Origin: Candidatus Zixiibacteriota bacterium
Lineage (GTDB): Bacteria > Zixibacteria > MSB-5A5 > UBA10806 > 4484-95
DNA length: 64,000 nucleotides
Reading direction: 5' to 3'
NCBI GenBank assembly: GCA_029932605.1
Contig: JAOZPT010000001.1
Coordinates: forward strand, 32,001-96,000
Of this stretch, positions 6,208-17,560 are shown one piece after another. Numbering within the stretch: position 1 is the first letter of the stretch; the number at the start of each line of letters is the position of its first letter. Position numbers and translations under genes: made by a program. The notes under the pieces are model-generated. The model did no database searches, was not told where the DNA came from, and was given only the letters and a program-made list of their open reading frames with translations.

Positions 6208-7425
6208 TTATAGCCTGGAAGCTAATAGTTTTAAGAACAATCCAACGTCCGTAACGATACCGGTCGTTTGTTTTGATCCCCTGTCGGCAAGTTTTGTAAC
6301 AACTGAGGGATTGATATCCACGCAAATGGTACTTACCCAGGCGGGAATCATGTTACCGGTGGCAATTGAATGGAGCATGGAAGAAAGCATGATTACTAAT
6401 TCGACACCTTTGAGAGCCCTGGCATAAGCAGCTTGGGCCTGAATCATGTCATTTATTGTCTCCGGGAGAGGACCATCATCACGGAGCGAGCCGGCGAGAA
6501 CAAAAGGGACATTAAACTTAATACAACTATACATTATTCCGCTGTGAAGCACTCCGGCTTGAACCATCTTTTTTATTGAGCCATATTTATAAACCTGATT
6601 GATGGCCCTGATATGGTTTTTATGGCCCTCCTCGCGTGGCTTACCCGTTTTTATATCCACTCCCAGGGAGGTGCCGTAAAGAGCCTGTTCGATGTCGTGG
6701 ACAGCAAGGGCATTTCCCGATAGCAGAACATTTATGAAACCTTTCCTGATCAGCTTGCATATCGAATCACCGGCACCGGTATGTACAGCCACCGGTCCAA
6801 CCACAAATGCCACCTTCTTTTTGTTACTTTTTAGCAAATCGGCGATATTACTTACCGCCAGCTCCACCTTCTTCTCGGAGGAGACCTCTGCCGACATGAA
6901 TTGAAAATCGCTTCTTTCACGTTGTTTGAATTCTGGGGTGATTTTTATTCCGGATAGACCGCAAACTATCTTATCACCCTTTTTGATATCTCGAAGCTTA
7001 ATACATCGGGGGATTCCATTTTTGACAACAATCACTGAATCCATACGCTGGTTTCGCACCCTGCGCCATCTCCCGTTCAGGCGAATATGGGAAAGGTAAT
7101 TTGTGGTAGAATAGAAATCTTCAGGAGCACAACCATCCTTTGGAGCATTTTTTACAATTGCTGGTTTATTGTCAACGATAATACAACCGAGGTTGTGAAG
7201 CTGTTCAACGATGTATGAAAGTTTTTTTGAAGAAGTGGCTTTTACAAGTATAGAGGCTTTAGTTTCATCGGTGTTGGTTCGTCCCATGACAAATGAGGTT
7301 ATCTCAAATTTTCCACCCAGACCTATGATTTTGTCGAGGATATTGGACATTATGCCCGAATCAACCAGGTGTCCATGGGCGGTCACCTCGCGGCTATACC
7401 AGCGTTTGGGAGGATAAACTTTCAC
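6208..7425 (-). CDS. TIGR00300 family protein (AgrE/ArgZ C-terminal-type ornithine cyclodeaminase, DHS-like NAD-binding domain)
   Basis: GHLVDSG, PEDFYSTTN, NQRMD, FMSAEVSSEK, GNALAVHDIE, AGSLRDDGPLP and KLADRGS motifs; start uncertain (GTG 7425 preferred over TTG 7488). Confidence 0.82.
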   Translation of the reverse strand: MKVYPPKRWYSREVTAHGHLVDSGIMSNILDKIIGLGGKFEITSFVMGRTNTDETKASILVKATSSKKLSYIVEQLHNLGCIIVDNKPAIVKNAPKDGCAPEDFYSTTNYLSHIRLNGRWRRVRNQRMDSVIVVKNGIPRCIKLRDIKKGDKIVCGLSGIKITPEFKQRERSDFQFMSAEVSSEKKVELAVSNIADLLKSNKKKVAFVVGPVAVHTGAGDSICKLIRKGFINVLLSGNALAVHDIEQALYGTSLGVDIKTGKPREEGHKNHIRAINQVYKYGSIKKMVQAGVLHSGIMYSCIKFNVPFVLAGSLRDDGPLPETINDMIQAQAAYARALKGVELVIMLSSMLHSIATGNMIPAWVSTICVDINPSVVTKLADRGSKQTTGIVTDVGLFLKLLASRL

Positions 7426-7573
7426 ATCGTTGTTATCGGCGAGTTTATTTTTTTGATTAATAATGTGACTCACCAGCCAGCTATGCAAACGGTGATGTAT
7501 ATTTTAAAGGCAGAAAGGTTATAACAATAAACTCGTTAAAAAATATGATATCATCATCGATTCCTTTGGGATT

Positions 7574-10794: not shown

Positions 10795-11316
10795 TTGACA
10801 AAATCAACCACCGCTAAGGCATTGATACCAATCGAGATTATAGAACGGAAGATATTCCTCCTCCGCAGGCAAAAAGTTATGATTGATAAAGACTTGGCTG
10901 AACTTTATGGTGTAACAACCGGAAACCTTAACAAAGCAGTAAGCAGAAACATTGATCGATTCCCTGAGGACTTTATGTTTCAATTAACAAAGGTTGAGTT
11001 TGAAAACTTGAAATTCCATTTTGGAATATCAAGTTGGGGTGGTACTCGAAGGTTACCCAGAGCATTTACTGAGCAAGGTGTAGCTATGCTCTCCAGTGTG
11101 CTAAGAAGTAAACGGGCTGTTCAGGTTAACATTCAAATAATGAGGACTTTTGTTAAACTCCGGGAATTAATATCATCACATACGCAATTGGCTAAGAAGG
11201 TACAAGCTTTGGAAAAGAGATACAACTCCCAGTTCAAAGTTGTGTTTGATGCTATTCACAAATTGATTGAATCGCCCAAAAAGGATAAAAGACGTATTGG
11301 CTTTTACAGAAAGTAG
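10795..11316 (+). CDS. ORF6N domain DNA-binding protein
   Basis: VMIDKDLAELYGV, RNIDRFPEDFMFQLT, AFTEQGVAMLSSVL and C-terminal RRIGF. Confidence 0.88.
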   Translation: MTKSTTAKALIPIEIIERKIFLLRRQKVMIDKDLAELYGVTTGNLNKAVSRNIDRFPEDFMFQLTKVEFENLKFHFGISSWGGTRRLPRAFTEQGVAMLSSVLRSKRAVQVNIQIMRTFVKLRELISSHTQLAKKVQALEKRYNSQFKVVFDAIHKLIESPKKDKRRIGFYRK

Positions 11317-12018
11317 GTCAAAACCCCTGCGGTTTTGACATATATTATGAGATAATAGCCAATAGCACAAGGCTCGTGGCCTACGGCTCTACTAATAGCT
11401 ATTACAAAATATGGCATGTATTTTTTATTCTTTTAACTTTTCCTCAAATTCCGTAAAATAATTGTTTATAACCCTTAAATTAAATTTCGAAGGTACGGTA
11501 GGACAGACTTTTAGTCTGTCCGGTCAGACAGGAATGTCTGACCTACCAGCAATCTTGAATTTGGAGTTGTTGAGGTTTTCGTTTCACTCAGACACCGACC
11601 TACGATTACCCTCAACGATTCTGGACAGCATTTTTTGCTGACCCTACATGAATCTACACTTTTATATGATAATAGCCAATAGCACAAGGCTCGTGGCCTA
11701 CGGCTCTACTAATAGCTATTACAAAATATGGCATGTATTTTTTATTCTTTTAACTTTTCCTCAAATTCCGTAAAATAATTGTTTATAACCCTTAAATTAA
11801 ATTTCGAAGGTACGGTAGGACAGACTTTTAGTCTGTCCGGTCAGACAGGAATGTCTGACCTACCAGCAATCTTGAATTTGGAGTTGTTGAGGTTTTCGTT
11901 TCACTCAGACACCGACCTACGATTACCCTCAACGATTCTGGACAGCATTTTTTGCTGACCCTACATAAATCTACACTTTTATATGATAATAGTCAAGAGC
12001 ACAAGGCTCGTGGCCTAC
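11313..12018. repeat. Cluster of about 12 GTAG-type REP hairpins (BIME/REPIN-like) filling the spacer between convergent genes
   Basis: GTAG + stem-loop units at 11313-11339 (+), 11358-11384 (-), 11498-11521 (+), 11522-11546 (-), ~11569-11603 (-, degenerate) and 11623-11647 (-); the last five recur at +317; final unit at 11992-12018 (-). Confidence 0.8.
11351..12018. repeat. 317-bp tandem direct duplication (2 full copies + 34-bp partial)
   Basis: Copies 11351-11667 and 11668-11984 differ at one base by eye (G11650 vs A11967); partial third copy at 11985-12018. Confidence 0.93.
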
Positions 12019-12441
12019 TTATTGTTCCACTTTTACTGGTTTATAAATTGCGCCGACGATCAGCCCAAGAATGATCATTTCTATCATTCCGAATAATATC
12101 CATAGCCAGAGCAATGCTCCAGGAATAGGAAATATTGGCCAGCACATAAAGGAGCCAACCACTATATAGAACAGGCCTATATAGATACCATAGCGGAATC
12201 CTTCAATGACCCCTTTGCCTTTAACACCGTAAGTATATATCCATACGAATAACAAGGTGAAAAAGAAGGCGCCGATATAATAAGCCCACATTTTCGAGTT
12301 CATATCCGCTTCGCTGCGAAGTAGCGTGCCGGTGAGGGGTTTGTAAATTTCGCCAAGTATCAACACATGTATGATTAAATCCATCACGAACAAAGCTACA
12401 AAGCCTACGATTACGGCATTGATGAATCTTTTCCAATTCAT
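12019..12441 (-). CDS. Hypothetical 4-TM membrane protein (DUF1761-like)
   Basis: 140 aa, four hydrophobic segments, EGFRYG motif; AGGAG SD. Confidence 0.7.
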   Translation of the reverse strand: MNWKRFINAVIVGFVALFVMDLIIHVLILGEIYKPLTGTLLRSEADMNSKMWAYYIGAFFFTLLFVWIYTYGVKGKGVIEGFRYGIYIGLFYIVVGSFMCWPIFPIPGALLWLWILFGMIEMIILGLIVGAIYKPVKVEQ

Positions 12442-12574
12442 TTTTCTCTCCTAAATGTTTGATTTTTTCTGTCTGATTGTGGGAGTTTTTGCAGGGATTT
12501 TCAAGCGAAATTTTCGATATTTTCAGAGGATATTATACCGCCATGAATTAATATGCGGATTTAGATTTGTTCGT

Positions 12575-14176
12575 TTATAAAAGGTATTTCCTTGGGTCAG
12601 CAATAGCGCCCTCAAGGGCAGAGGCAGCCGCGGTAGCTGGAGAAGATAGATAAACTTCCGGATTCTTTGAGTTGGTTTGCCGGATTAAATCACAGCTGTT
12701 GGTAGTAAGGATTCTTTCATCTGCAGCAAGCATATCCTTGTGAGCTCCCGCACATGAGCCGCAACCCGGACTTAACATGACACACCCCGACCCAACTAAA
12801 GAACGGATATAACCTTTATCGATTGCGGCAAGATATGTTTTGCGGGAAGCGGGTACGATTATCATCCGGGTGTCGCGGTGGATACGTCTTCCCCGGAGTA
12901 TGGAGACAACCATTTCCAGGTCATCTAAACGACCACTTGAACATCCGCATAATACAATCTGGTCTATTTTCTTACCCGCTACATCTTCCACCGGTTTAAC
13001 ACAATGCTTTTTATTCAGACATGCGACCTGAGGTGTGAGATATGAGACATCTATTTCGATTTCGTTTTCGTATTTGGCATTGATGTCAGGAGCAATTGGA
13101 GAGAATCTTTCTTTGGTAATTTTTTTTAAGTATCTTTGAGATACATCATCAAAGGGAATTATGGCTGATTTTGCCCCGATTTCCAAGGAGGAACTGGTTA
13201 AAATAAGTCTTTGTGGCACCGTCATTGTGGAGACCGCATCACCATAGAATTCCAGCGCCTTATAATTTATATCCTCAAAATGAAGGTCTCGGGATAATTT
13301 AAGGATGATATCTTTTGCGAATACACCCCGGGTGGGTAAACCGTTTATAACCACCTTGATAGTTTTGGGTACTTTCAGCCAGATTCTGCCCGAGGCCCAT
13401 ACTACCGCCATATCCAGTGGGCTTATACAGGTTGAGAAAGCACCAATACTTCCGTGGGATGTGGCTTGGTTATCGGTTGCCACAATCAGGCGGCTGGGAA
13501 GTATTAATCCCTCTTCGAGGGTAATCTGGTATGGTATTCCCCAACCGATATCGTAAAATTTTTCTATTCTTTGTTTTTTAACAAATTTGCGGATTCTTTT
13601 GTGGACATCGGCAATCTTCCCAAATTCATTTTGTGTCCAGTCATTCAAAATTATAGTGATTTTTGAATTGTCCCACACTTTGGGAAAGCCTGTCAGTTTA
13701 AACTGTTTTATAATTTGTTCGGTATCGTCAACTGATACAGCTAGGTCGGGTCGGACGCTTATGACCTGACCCTCTTCTACTGATTTCAGCCCGGACTTTT
13801 TTGCCAGTAATTTTTTGATAAATGTTTCTCTTCGGGAATCTCTGCTTTTCCTGTAGGTTCCTCTTAAGTCCAGTTCAAGTTGTTCCATTTTCAGTTGAAC
13901 CGGTTTTTTCTTGATGCCGTATTTGATGCGCCATTGGCGGAAGCCGGGACCGGATATCCCCAGCTCTGCTCCGGCTAATCTATCATCACCATAGCGTTCC
14001 CAGAGTTCTATTATTTTCTCATGTGAATATTTTGAGAAGCTGTATTGTCCGATATTTTTCTTCGAGCGCCAGTATGCGACCAAACGGCTGGGCACTCCAT
14101 AGACCTCTGCAATTTTCTTGTCGGTTCGGTATTTCTTTTGAAGCTCTAAGAGCTCTTTTTTCTTGGGTATTTTCAC
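12575..14176 (-). CDS. Aconitase/3-isopropylmalate dehydratase large-subunit-like protein with two N-terminal HTH-like repeats and a degenerate active site
   Basis: LeuC/HacA scaffold (WLKVPKTIKV, GVFAKDIIL, YKALEFYG, EIGAK, YLSSPATAAASALEGAIADPR); Cys motifs LCGCSSGR and PGCGSC; about 110 extra N-terminal residues. Confidence 0.85.
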   Translation of the reverse strand: MKIPKKKELLELQKKYRTDKKIAEVYGVPSRLVAYWRSKKNIGQYSFSKYSHEKIIELWERYGDDRLAGAELGISGPGFRQWRIKYGIKKKPVQLKMEQLELDLRGTYRKSRDSRRETFIKKLLAKKSGLKSVEEGQVISVRPDLAVSVDDTEQIIKQFKLTGFPKVWDNSKITIILNDWTQNEFGKIADVHKRIRKFVKKQRIEKFYDIGWGIPYQITLEEGLILPSRLIVATDNQATSHGSIGAFSTCISPLDMAVVWASGRIWLKVPKTIKVVINGLPTRGVFAKDIILKLSRDLHFEDINYKALEFYGDAVSTMTVPQRLILTSSSLEIGAKSAIIPFDDVSQRYLKKITKERFSPIAPDINAKYENEIEIDVSYLTPQVACLNKKHCVKPVEDVAGKKIDQIVLCGCSSGRLDDLEMVVSILRGRRIHRDTRMIIVPASRKTYLAAIDKGYIRSLVGSGCVMLSPGCGSCAGAHKDMLAADERILTTNSCDLIRQTNSKNPEVYLSSPATAAASALEGAIADPRKYLL

Positions 14177-14194
14177 TTTTTTTGGTGTTTATCT

Positions 14195-14680
14195 TTACTG
14201 GAGTTTTTTTAGATGTTTTTTTAAAGAGTCGTATATATCCAGTAAAGCAAGCGATTGGACTTTTGTTAACCCCACAACTGGCATAAAATTGGTGTCTCCC
14301 TGGAAACGTGGTACAACATGTATATGCAGATGGTCAGTGATGCTTGAACCGGCCACCTCGCCGATATTGATACCGATATTTAAGCCGTCAGCCGGCATGG
14401 CGATATTGAGAAGTTTTGAGCTGAGAATCATGAGTCTAAACATCTCTGTATATTCAGCTTTAGTCAATTTATCAAGGTTGGATTTATGTTTATTGGGAGC
14501 TATCATTAAATGCCCACTGTTATAAGGGTAGCGGTTTAAAATGATAAAAGCATTTTTACCCCTGTATAAGATCAGATTTTGCCGGTCTCTTTTTTGTTTT
14601 AACCGACTGCAAAATATACATTCTTTTTCTTTTGAGCCAATAATATATTCAGCACGCCAGGGTGCCCAGAGCTCTTCCAT
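14195..14680 (-). CDS. HIT family hydrolase (Ap4A phosphorylase/Fhit-like)
   Basis: LWAPWR, CIFC, LNRYPYNSGHLM and HLHIHVVPR; start at ATG 14680. Confidence 0.9.
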   Translation of the reverse strand: MEELWAPWRAEYIIGSKEKECIFCSRLKQKRDRQNLILYRGKNAFIILNRYPYNSGHLMIAPNKHKSNLDKLTKAEYTEMFRLMILSSKLLNIAMPADGLNIGINIGEVAGSSITDHLHIHVVPRFQGDTNFMPVVGLTKVQSLALLDIYDSLKKHLKKLQ

Positions 14681-14715
14681 GTTATACAAGTTAAATAGAA
14701 TGATTTTAAAATCAA
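14681..14715 (-). promoter_or_regulatory. Putative sigma70 promoter, probably leaderless, for the HIT and aconitase-like genes
   Basis: TTGATT-N16-TAACTT-N7-ATG; no SD. Confidence 0.45.
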
Positions 14716-14831
14716 GAATTTTTTGAGAATTATTATTTCTTGTGAGAAGAATTGACAAAAAGTTGACATCCGATTTATTATAATAATATATTAATGTCAG
14801 ATGACTACTCCCCGATAGAATACAGAAGAAC

Positions 14832-14860
14832 TTGACATGGTAAAAGACAATGGTTATTTT
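14832..14860 (+). promoter_or_regulatory. Putative sigma70 promoter of valS
   Basis: TTGACA-N17-TATTTT. Confidence 0.5.
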
Positions 14861-14884
14861 GTTTTTTTATTGAAGGATTAAATT

Positions 14885-17560
14885 ATGACTGAGATTGCGA
14901 AAGCTTATAACCCCAAACTTGTAGAGGATGCCATTTATCAAAGATGGCTTAAAATGGGCATATTTCATGCCCGCCTTGATTCTGATAAGAAACCTTATTC
15001 AATTGTCATCCCCCCACCCAATGTAACCGATGTTTTACATTTGGGACATGCCTTAAACAATACTCTTCAGGATATAATGATACGCTGGAAGAGGATGCAG
15101 GGTTACGAGGTAGAGTGGCTTCCAGGTGTTGACCATGCCGGTATCGCCACCCAGGTTGTAGTGGAAAAAACCCTTGTGCGCGAGGGGCGTTCACGGCATG
15201 ATATTGGCCGTGAGAAGTTTGTTCGGAGAATCTGGAAATGGAAAGAGGAAAAGTTTAACATCATCATAAGACAGCTCCAGAAAATAGGTTGTAGTTGTGA
15301 TTGGGACCGTATTCGTTTTACTATGGATAAGCAACTTTCACGAGCCGTTATCGAGGTGTTTTGCAGGCTTTATGAAAAAGGCTTGATATATCGCGGCGAG
15401 AGGATAGTTAATTGGTGTCCCGAATGCCTAACCACTCTTTCTGACGATGAGGTTGAAAGGGAGGAGGTTGATTCGTTCCTCTGGTACATTAGATATAAAC
15501 TCAAAGGTTCAGATGAGTTTTTAACTGTTGCTACCACACGTCCGGAAACAATGCTTGGCGATACCGCAATTGCGGTTAACCCTGATGATGGGCGTTTTAA
15601 AAGATATATCGGAAAATCAGCAATATTGCCATTTCTCGACCGTGAATTGCCAATAATAGCTGATGATTACGTTGATCCGGAGTTTGGCACAGGCGTACTG
15701 AAGATTACACCTGCTCATGATGCTAATGATTTTGAGGTTGGTATACGCCATAACCTGGATAGAATTAATATCTTAAATAAAAATGGCACACTCAATGAAA
15801 ATGCTGGGAAATTCGCAGGGCTGGACAGGTATGAAGCCCGTAAGAAGATAGTTGAGGAGCTTAAACAGAAAGGTCATCTGGAAAAGATTGAGAACTATTC
15901 TTTGATATCTGGTTCTTGTTATCGTTGTCATTCAGTTGTTGAACCCTATCTTTCCAAGCAATGGTTTGTGAAGATGAAGCCATTGGTTAAGCCGGCCATA
16001 GAATCGGTCAAGTCGGGAAGGATCAAATTTCATCCGGAGCATTGGGTTAAAACGTATCTTCATTGGATGGAGAACGTACGTGATTGGTGCATCTCGCGCC
16101 AACTCTGGTGGGGACATCGTATTCCGGTGTATTATTGTAATGACTGCAACGAGATTATAGTTGAGCGAGAAAAACCGAGGGAATGTTCAAGATGTAAGAG
16201 TAAAAATATCGTCCAAGATGAGGATGTATTGGACACTTGGTTTTCCTCATGGTTATGGCCATTTTCAACTTTTGGCTGGCCGGAGAAGACAGCTGAACTG
16301 GATAAGTTTTTCCCGACAAATGCCTTATTTACTGCAAATGAAATTATATATTTATGGGTTGCCCGGATGGTGATGGCCTCACTTGAGTTTATGGGTAAGG
16401 AACCGTTCTATGATGTATATATTCATGGCACCGTGCGAGATGCTGATGGTATCAAGATGTCCAAATCACTTGGTAATGGAATTGATCCATTGGAAATTAT
16501 CGATAAATTTGGAGCTGATGCTTTGAGGGCTTCGTTGATTCTGACCACTCCTGAGGGGCAGGACCCATCCATATCAGAAAGAACTTTCGAGATAGGACGT
16601 AATTTCGCTAACAAGCTCTGGAGTGCCTCAAGGTTTGTAAGGCTTAATATTGGCGATTTTAAGCTTACTAAAGATATTAATGTTAATGCTAATTATCTGG
16701 AGATGTCTGATAGATGGATACTCTCACGTTTAGCTAAAACTATTGGCCAGATAAATAATTATCTTTCGGGATTTCGTTTTTGCACTGCTGCCAAAGCTGT
16801 TTATGATTTTACCTGGAACGACTATTGCAGTAATTACTTAGAGATGATTAAGCCACGGTTGGCTGCCGAGAGCAATGATAAAAATCCTCAATTGCAAAGA
16901 TCGAAAATGGCGGCGCGTCTGTGCTCAGGTTTTACCCTTCTGCAGATATTGAAAATCCTTCACCCCTTTATGCCGTTTGTCACATGTGAGATCTGGATGT
17001 TGTTATTAGGTGATGATAAGGCCGGAACGATCTCAATCGAGAACTGGCCTGAACCGCAGTTGAAATTCATTGATGATAACCTTGAAAAAGAGATGGAGAA
17101 AGTGATAAGGCTGGCCGAAGCTGTGAGAACGGCCTGTGCCGAGCTTAACGTTCCCCCCTCGAAAAAACCGCATATATTGATTAAGTGTGAGGATGGTAAA
17201 CTGGCTGATATATTTAATGCTCACCGACAGGAGATAAAAAATCTGGCTCGTTCGGGTGATGTAAGGGCAAATATCGACATTGCCAAACCACCGCTGTCTG
17301 CTTCAGCTGTTATACCCGGGGCAGAGGTATATATACCACTTGAGGGACTTATCGATATCGAACAGGAAAAGGTTCGCCTTGAAAAACAAATTGAGGAGAA
17401 ACGGATTTATTACGAGAAGCTCACCAAGAAGCTAAACAATAAGGATTTTACAGAACGTGCTCCATCTGAGGTAGTTGAGGCGGAGAAGGCTAAATTATTA
17501 AAAACTGAGAAGCTGATCGAGAAACTCAATAAAAACCTCGAATCGCTGGCAGGGTGGTAA
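14885..17560 (+). CDS. valS: Valine--tRNA ligase
   Basis: PPPNVT..LHLGH (HIGH), DHAGIATQ, DWCISRQLWWGHRIP, KMSKS and C-terminal coiled coil. Confidence 0.97.
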   Translation: MTEIAKAYNPKLVEDAIYQRWLKMGIFHARLDSDKKPYSIVIPPPNVTDVLHLGHALNNTLQDIMIRWKRMQGYEVEWLPGVDHAGIATQVVVEKTLVREGRSRHDIGREKFVRRIWKWKEEKFNIIIRQLQKIGCSCDWDRIRFTMDKQLSRAVIEVFCRLYEKGLIYRGERIVNWCPECLTTLSDDEVEREEVDSFLWYIRYKLKGSDEFLTVATTRPETMLGDTAIAVNPDDGRFKRYIGKSAILPFLDRELPIIADDYVDPEFGTGVLKITPAHDANDFEVGIRHNLDRINILNKNGTLNENAGKFAGLDRYEARKKIVEELKQKGHLEKIENYSLISGSCYRCHSVVEPYLSKQWFVKMKPLVKPAIESVKSGRIKFHPEHWVKTYLHWMENVRDWCISRQLWWGHRIPVYYCNDCNEIIVEREKPRECSRCKSKNIVQDEDVLDTWFSSWLWPFSTFGWPEKTAELDKFFPTNALFTANEIIYLWVARMVMASLEFMGKEPFYDVYIHGTVRDADGIKMSKSLGNGIDPLEIIDKFGADALRASLILTTPEGQDPSISERTFEIGRNFANKLWSASRFVRLNIGDFKLTKDINVNANYLEMSDRWILSRLAKTIGQINNYLSGFRFCTAAKAVYDFTWNDYCSNYLEMIKPRLAAESNDKNPQLQRSKMAARLCSGFTLLQILKILHPFMPFVTCEIWMLLLGDDKAGTISIENWPEPQLKFIDDNLEKEMEKVIRLAEAVRTACAELNVPPSKKPHILIKCEDGKLADIFNAHRQEIKNLARSGDVRANIDIAKPPLSASAVIPGAEVYIPLEGLIDIEQEKVRLEKQIEEKRIYYEKLTKKLNNKDFTERAPSEVVEAEKAKLLKTEKLIEKLNKNLESLAGW

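Follow-up and report, generated by a model that had tools for sequence, protein, structure and literature searches.

The stretch of 64,000 nucleotides analysed here (the window) encodes, at 12575..14176 on the reverse strand, a 533-aa protein composed of two predicted helix-turn-helix (HTH) units, a clamp-binding-type motif and a LeuC/HacA-type pseudoenzyme body, as delineated from the open reading frame, profile matches and AlphaFold models. We read it, with a probability of about 0.5, as a single-copy core protein of its phylum that binds DNA through the HTH units and docks on DnaN through the motif QLELDL, the aconitase body serving as a scaffold. Clamp docking and the scaffold role are candidate functions, likely ones on the evidence given below. 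Because the protein combines predicted HTH units and a candidate clamp motif with the loss of its catalytic residues, it likely works on the chromosome, rather than in catalysis or in iron sensing across the family. The open-access literature searched gave no description of it.

Distribution, tandem HTH head and operon

The reading frame opens with GTG and contains no internal stop. Its N-terminal head has been found in 265 of 285 genomes of the phylum, including 194 of the 198 of high quality, as a single match in all but four. The best 120 protein matches are all full-length fusions, and every one of them that is named by taxon belongs to Zixibacteria. The genome scan gave 211 loci, 80 of which are listed, and the locus counts in this text refer to the listed ones; their titles are mostly those of Zixibacteria or of uncultured assemblies labelled Ignavibacteria. 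The metagenome scan gave five loci, none of them a full-length close relative.

The initial annotation had described two similar helical repeats with an HTH-like pattern at the N-terminus, and both the repeats and the fold are recovered. The repeats share 26% identity across 34 aa (E 8e-4), and each is predicted to form a three-helix HTH unit. Unit 1 (aa 6-39; 14060..14161, reverse strand) comprises helices at residues 6-16, 19-26 and 30-39 of the AlphaFold model and is indicated also by the VIA structure search and by Pfam; unit 2 (aa 52-85; 13922..14023, reverse strand) is defined by AlphaFold and by VIA matches to 2m8g (Z 4.4) and Fis 1etk (Z 4.3). In the head-only AlphaFold model both units adopt the three-helix fold with a pLDDT of about 90. 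The top VIA matches of the head are mostly HTH DNA-binding domains with Z 4-6, led by the phage repressor 7tz1 (Z 6.2, rmsd 2.1, 44 aligned) and including GcrA, FapR, TyrR, NtrC and Fis; the modest Z values are expected, since only 44 residues are involved. Pfam HTH_23 is recognised in 36 of 40 family members with E values of up to 1, the lowest being 3.7e-6; the window's own head reaches only E 0.12. The head profile found no match below E 0.05 among PDB sequences, and a tblastn search with the head found none in phages. Residues 1-116 carry 30 Lys or Arg against 14 Asp or Glu. DNA binding by the tandem HTH head is, on the strength of these models, very probable.

The head profile also matches proteins built of 4-10 head-like repeats, which score strongly as HTH. 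Such proteins (P0152, P0159, P0164, P0168, P0142, P0162) consist solely of tandem HTH repeats resembling the head and are possibly modular DNA-binding arrays. In P0152, P0159, P0164 and P0168 the repeat unit is very similar to that of the head (E down to 2e-37) and strongly HTH_23-positive; in contrast to the window protein, these are uncharacterised singletons with four or five repeats and no enzyme body. Judged by the repeat sequences, proteins of this kind are the likely source of the aconitase-fused head.

Directly upstream on the same strand lies the gene of a 161-aa HIT protein (14195..14680, ATG at 14680; PF01230), which is Ap4A-phosphorylase-like, with an intact HxHxH motif and a best PDB match to the Ap4A phosphorylase 3ano (E 6e-29). 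The HIT gene ends 18 bp before the 533-aa frame, and it occupies the same position in 79 of the 80 listed loci, frequently with a 4-bp overlap; this same-strand arrangement agrees with the co-transcription proposed in the initial annotation. HIT is present in 60 of 61 sampled genomes; in the exception (G107) the head is missing as well, a pattern consistent with an assembly gap. The remaining neighbours differ by lineage. A weak sigma70-like promoter, TTGATT-16-TAACTT (14688..14715, reverse strand), was recognised by eye 7 nt before the HIT ATG. The promoter scan made no call at these positions; in many relatives a clearer sigma70-like promoter is visible by eye immediately before the HIT start. 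The HIT-led mRNA is likely leaderless. No RNA data set was listed as containing positions 12000-15000, which has no bearing on expression.

Three other loci of the window may be mentioned. Three strong promoters of the sigma70 type, matching at 10-11 of 12 positions, are located at 14752-14860 on the forward strand; they face the valyl-tRNA-synthetase-like gene, divergently from the HIT operon. At 10795-11316 (forward strand), outside the conserved neighbourhood, an ORF6N-domain DNA-binding protein is encoded (E 3.5e-33), just after a gene that is presumably urocanate-hydratase-like. The frame at 6208-7488 (reverse strand) encodes a protein with LOR/SDH and ArgZ-like C-terminal domains.

The clamp-binding-type motif

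The most conserved element of the protein outside the HTH units is a six-residue beta-clamp-binding-type motif, QLELDL (aa 99-104; 13865..13882, reverse strand), which was identified by conservation and AlphaFold and was absent from the initial annotation. It belongs to a family pattern placed right after HTH unit 2, K-P-x-x-L-[KR]-x-x-Q-L-E-[LF]-x-[LF]. Conservation was counted in 197 overlapping sequences (the 120 best proteins and 77 listed loci), which are kin and partly duplicates: Q99 is present in all 197 and L100 in 196, every sequence has a hydrophobic residue at 102 and at 104, and position 103 varies freely. The strict form Q-aliphatic-x-[LM]-x-[FL] occurs in 159 of the 197, and all of them conform when F at position 4 and I or M at position 6 are admitted. 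At no other column is a match seen in more than 5 of 197 sequences, and QLE[LF]x[LF] is found in each of 30 further genomes. A lone match would be weak, since 80 of the 1595 long open frames of the genome (5%) contain the strict pattern.

The passages cited here give Q-aliphatic-x-[LM]-x-[FL] as the definition of six-residue clamp motifs, QLxLxF as a high-affinity form, LQLELDF as the top clamp binder in phage display and QLNLF as the motif of Pol V (PMC11139829); Phe at position 4, seen in 35 of the 197 sequences, is outside that definition. In the cited parts of two other papers, QLSLPL of Hda is tight-binding (PMC12309361) and six-residue clamp motifs are functional in transposases (PMC3971601). 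QLELDL itself has the strict form and lies in a segment predicted to be disordered, with a pLDDT below 50 at aa 97-112 of the full-length model and at aa 99-101 of the head-only model; residues 93-101 are drawn as a helix in the full-length model. On the side of the clamp, 16 of 17 DnaN pocket positions, listed after the cited part of PMC11139829 with numbering mapped by motif, are invariant in 30 of 30 clamps of the phylum. The genome's DnaE carries QTLLF. A second DnaE-type polymerase frame of 1034 aa (contig C36, 44010-46880) has no match to the clamp-motif patterns used.

The motif persists in relatives whose body barely scores as an aconitase, and also where a 3-residue insertion precedes it (P0161). 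In three relatives of 33-35% identity the Gln is lost and a five-residue QLNLF appears two positions on. These distant proteins (L152-L154, from position 1501) are full-length, read HLQLNLF and have no cluster cysteines. The argument for a clamp motif therefore draws on its unique conservation, the low-confidence linker, its persistence with eroded bodies, the tolerance of an insertion and the turnover to QLNLF, and from such sequence patterns QLELDL is probably, though far from certainly, a functional one. The protein resembles known six-residue clamp ligands (Hda QLSLPL, Pol IV QLVLGL, transposases), as presented in the cited portions of the sources, in carrying Q-L-x-L-x-[LF] in a low-confidence linker next to a predicted DNA-binding part (PMC12309361, PMC11139829, PMC3971601). 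It differs from them in lacking an AAA+, polymerase or transposase domain, the cargo being an aconitase-type body. A search for Hda in the window genome gave nothing above the cut-off, which leaves room for a role in replication control and is not evidence for one.

The same features can be read in terms of an ordinary transcription regulator or nucleoid protein derived from an enzyme. KPxxLKxxQLELxL would then be a dimerization or packing element that merely resembles a clamp motif, and the body would oligomerize or bind a small ligand, perhaps in connection with Ap4A turnover by HIT. The evidence for a tandem HTH, the tight HIT coupling and the chance occurrence of short motifs suit such a regulator, as do K91, P92 and L95, which are conserved upstream as strongly as the motif itself and beyond what clamp binding alone explains. 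However, the linker is modelled at low confidence and not packed, QLNLF turnover and insertion tolerance are more easily explained by a linear motif than by a structural strand, and the former ligand pocket drifts further than the body as a whole (28% against 44% pairwise identity). Moreover, no conserved operator was recognised by eye in the 61 of 81 regions upstream of HIT that were inspected. We consider this alternative rather unlikely and prefer docking on DnaN.

The aconitase-type body: catalysis, selection and Fe-S ligands

The LeuC/HacA-type large-subunit body (aa 117-529; 12590..13828, reverse strand) has been identified by profiles, alignment to MJ0499 and Foldseek. Residues 118-529 match the LeuC-like profile PRK00402 (E 1e-119; 399.7 bits vs the cut-off of 385); the hacA_fam model gives 378.7, under its cut-off of 385.7, and the LEU2, HacA_Meth and IPMI_arch models also stay below theirs. 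The body aligns with MJ0499 and MJ1003 of M. jannaschii, with 36% identity to the former, and matches 4kp1 in Foldseek (TM by target 0.93).

The residue numbers of aconitase are taken to map onto the LeuC/HacA motifs of this protein. In the cited part of one source the cluster and catalytic residues of aconitase are Cys358/421/424, His101, His147, Asp165, His167 and Ser642 (PMC8184944). The active site was scored at 24 positions, chosen by alignment to MJ0499 and by comparison with intact homologues. Only seven remain in the window protein (D150, Q217, D235, C412, R416, C472, C475), against 23-24 in intact relatives; substitutions have removed the histidines at 179, 216 and 237 as well as the N-R-N-x-x-R set, and the catalytic and substrate-binding His/Asp/Ser/Asn/Arg residues are thus not retained as a set. 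Every motif change quoted in the initial annotation is present in the sequence, two of them in a register shifted by one residue against MJ0499: D-H corresponds to N178-D179, and N-R-N-F-x-G-R to S494-C495-D496-L497-x-R499-Q500. Its statements that catalysis is lost in this copy, that the three Fe-S cysteines and an unbroken 533-aa frame nevertheless remain and that no small subunit adjoins the gene are likewise correct. The ligand positions found by alignment are C412 (12941..12943, reverse strand) and C472-x-x-C475 (12752..12763, reverse strand); sequence comparison adds a new cysteine, C495 (12692..12694, reverse strand), at the position of a substrate-site Arg in intact members. The window protein is almost certainly a pseudoenzyme in its genome.

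Two states of the active site were found among 77 full-length loci, L033, L055 and L068 of the 80 listed having been dropped as short. In 26 of them 23-24 of the 24 positions are held and in 51 only 5-16, with a gap between. Downstream of the intact copies, leuD is present in 24 cases and the contig edge in two, and GSSRE is found in 23 of these 24 leuD genes, the other being cut by a contig end. Around the 51 eroded copies, 33 have no leuD within at least 1 kb, eight lie at an edge, and ten have a leuD, always without GSSRE. Fusion to the HTH head is therefore independent of catalytic loss, and the co-occurrence of the two, for which the initial annotation suggested a check, is not found. On the tree the intact copies form a single group and the eroded ones two, the window protein belonging to eroded group A; two separate losses of catalysis rather than one are suggested, weakly, by support values of 85/80 with a single outgroup on a long branch.

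The window genome, which is 99.96% complete, has two PF00694 small-subunit domains, and both belong to other aconitase-family genes. One is part of an intact LeuC and LeuD pair amid TCA genes (contig C28), so the separate pair sought after the initial annotation does exist; the other is part of a fused 660-aa enzyme (contig C3). The intact LeuC-type aconitase of the TCA cluster (C28, 15395-17182) and a SucD-like neighbour (C28, 8865-9962) carry Lys/Ala/Thr-rich, histone-H1-like C-terminal tails, which in the former is possibly a second DNA-binding add-on to an aconitase in this genome. One might suppose that the window protein is still an active dehydratase, its fold and three cysteines being intact and a LeuD being encoded on C28. 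Against this stand the substitutions of H179, H216, H237 and the N-R-N-x-x-R set, the position of the C28 leuD beside its own intact leuC, and the absence of GSSRE from 10 of 10 leuD genes remaining beside eroded copies in the listed loci, and an active enzyme is extremely improbable. A role in leucine or lysine biosynthesis in the window genome has been ruled out, as no PF00682 match is present. In 50 genomes (of 74 first chosen; MAGs and possibly incomplete) a PF00682 synthase match is absent from 18 of 20 with the intact type vs 8 of 30 with the eroded type, so the intact HTH-LeuC/LeuD pair is probably not an enzyme of either pathway. In 18 of the 20 intact-type genomes there are about three aconitase-family genes and no matches of the homocitrate/isopropylmalate-synthase type.

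The eroded body has been relaxed, yet it is still constrained. Among the eroded copies of the listed loci, mean pairwise identity falls from 69% in the head to 44% in the body and 28% in the active site; among the intact ones the corresponding values are 72%, 79% and 99.7%. Pooled dN/dS in eroded and intact copies, respectively, is 0.04 and 0.07 for the head with the motif, 0.13 and 0.08 for the body, and 0.18 and 0.004 for the former active site; these values (Nei-Gojobori counts, own script) describe sister pairs of relatives with dS < 1.5, 7 of 15 eroded and 8 of 11 intact, the nearest pair of the window protein being saturated. The pocket has thus been released about forty-fold, and, because the eroded body is under purifying selection (dN/dS about 0.13), the protein is a maintained pseudoenzyme and not a decaying one. 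The initial annotation had named two signs of simple decay: same-head homologues with intact motifs do occur, whereas decay under relaxed selection is not seen in the sister pairs of relatives.

It could still be argued that the head alone matters and that the body is a decaying passenger persisting by inertia. The active site, LeuD and the cysteines do erode stepwise, some relatives match aconitase at merely E 1e-5 to 1e-14, and the copy L068 (5989-7359) is cut at 456 aa, with the 72-aa frame that comes next belonging to the family too, through a frameshift or a sequencing error. Besides the dN/dS of the body, which already weakens this view, the length remains within about 480-590 aa, the most diverged members included, and many scaffold residues are at least 85% conserved across 134 eroded sequences. 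A search for shorter forms produced nine matches, four of them from contigs no longer than about 1 kb and two without a contig record. A mere passenger is therefore very unlikely.

In the initial annotation the protein was proposed to be a sensor, and it may be asked whether cluster state (iron or redox) switches DNA binding at least in this lineage, with C495 possibly as a fourth ligand. The triad C412/C472/C475 is shared with the three closest homologues (80-87% identity) while nearby sites vary. In 134 eroded sequences the ligands have also been lost more slowly than substrate residues: C412 is kept in 95, C472 in 77 and C475 in 95, vs 33 for H179, 21 for S236 and 9 for R500, and the substrate residues H149, H179, S236, H237, N494, R495 and R500 together range from 9 to 48. 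New cysteines at 494 (25 of 134) and 495 (31 of 134) are exclusive to eroded copies (0 of 63 intact), and where an eroded protein has three ligands, an additional Cys lies at 492-498 in 33 of 54 cases.

The wider family speaks against this proposal. Three ligands are present in 17 of the 51 eroded listed loci, two in three, one in 15 and none in 16, the head being as well conserved in eroded as in intact copies (69% vs 72%), so conservation of the three cysteines across homologues is not borne out. The three-Cys state switches nine times on the tree, and of the eight tree members in the window's own clade only two have the triad; at the level of loci, 10 of 18 in the window's clade retain the three cysteines. 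The non-ligand C215 is kept about equally often (73 of 134), H216, D178 and D235 are retained in 89-103 of the 134, and the extra Cys occurs likewise in 13 of 29 copies without a complete triad. A change of Arg to Cys is, moreover, a single common transition. The ligands of an IRP-type switch would be conserved wherever the regulator is kept, and here they are often lost, which makes a family-wide Fe-S switch unlikely. The chances that the window protein holds a cluster are about even, and from the sequence comparison a cluster in its lineage, and C495 as its fourth ligand, are possible. Control of DNA binding by the cluster is doubtful, and the sensor proposal as a whole is unlikely.

Proposed origin, role and relation to known systems

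The ancestor was likely bifunctional, combining the head with an active LeuC-type hydro-lyase and its LeuD, a state that one clade would have kept. The remaining clades would have retained the head, the motif and the fold, but shed catalysis and LeuD and, in many cases, the Fe-S ligands. In the proposed mechanism the leaderless HIT-led operon would supply a housekeeping protein, which would be recruited through QLELDL to clamp-loaded DNA and grip it with the tandem HTH, the aconitase body acting as an oligomerising or ligand-holding scaffold. Our guess is that it may act in the wake of the replication fork, either in chromosome maintenance or as a replication-coupled regulator. More tentatively, a LeuC-type aconitase may have been converted throughout the phylum into a clamp-riding core DNA-binding protein that follows the replisome via DnaN, the body (with Fe-S in some lineages) and the co-translated, Ap4A-degrading HIT coupling metabolic or stress state to replication, in the window's case in a genome lacking Hda.

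With the LeuC/HacA enzymes (MJ0499, MJ1003; PRK00402, TIGR01343) the window protein shares the three Cys positions as well as a fold that extends across about 420 aa, at 36% identity and a TM by target of 0.90-0.93, and one clade of the HTH-fused family has the full active site together with leuD. In contrast to them, it adds an HTH pair and a clamp-type motif, its active site is eroded and no leuD is adjacent. IRP1, whose structures are among the matches of the window protein in sequence and Foldseek comparisons, and the RNA-binding bacterial aconitases likewise link an aconitase scaffold to nucleic-acid binding. However, binding by IRP1 takes place in the aconitase cleft and requires loss of the cluster, whereas the window protein has a dedicated HTH pair and the ligands are dispensable across its family. 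The closest functional analogy is offered by yeast mitochondrial Aco1p, an aconitase located in nucleoids, where, as stated in the cited part of the source, it is required for maintaining DNA independently of catalysis (PMC6124551). Unlike the window protein, Aco1p is an active TCA enzyme, and that part of the source mentions neither an HTH nor a clamp motif (PMC6124551).

Across the phylum the family provides a natural series: some members have an intact active site, others are partly eroded, and at the far end the pseudoenzyme can hardly be recognised, while the non-enzymatic parts are fixed throughout. The series therefore reveals the job kept by selection, and the steps from moonlighting to pseudoenzyme can be tested with real intermediates. 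If the motif binds DnaN, the protein would represent a new type of clamp client, being neither a polymerase nor a repair enzyme, a transposase or an AAA+ protein, and it would give yeast Aco1p a counterpart among bacteria in the maintenance of DNA.
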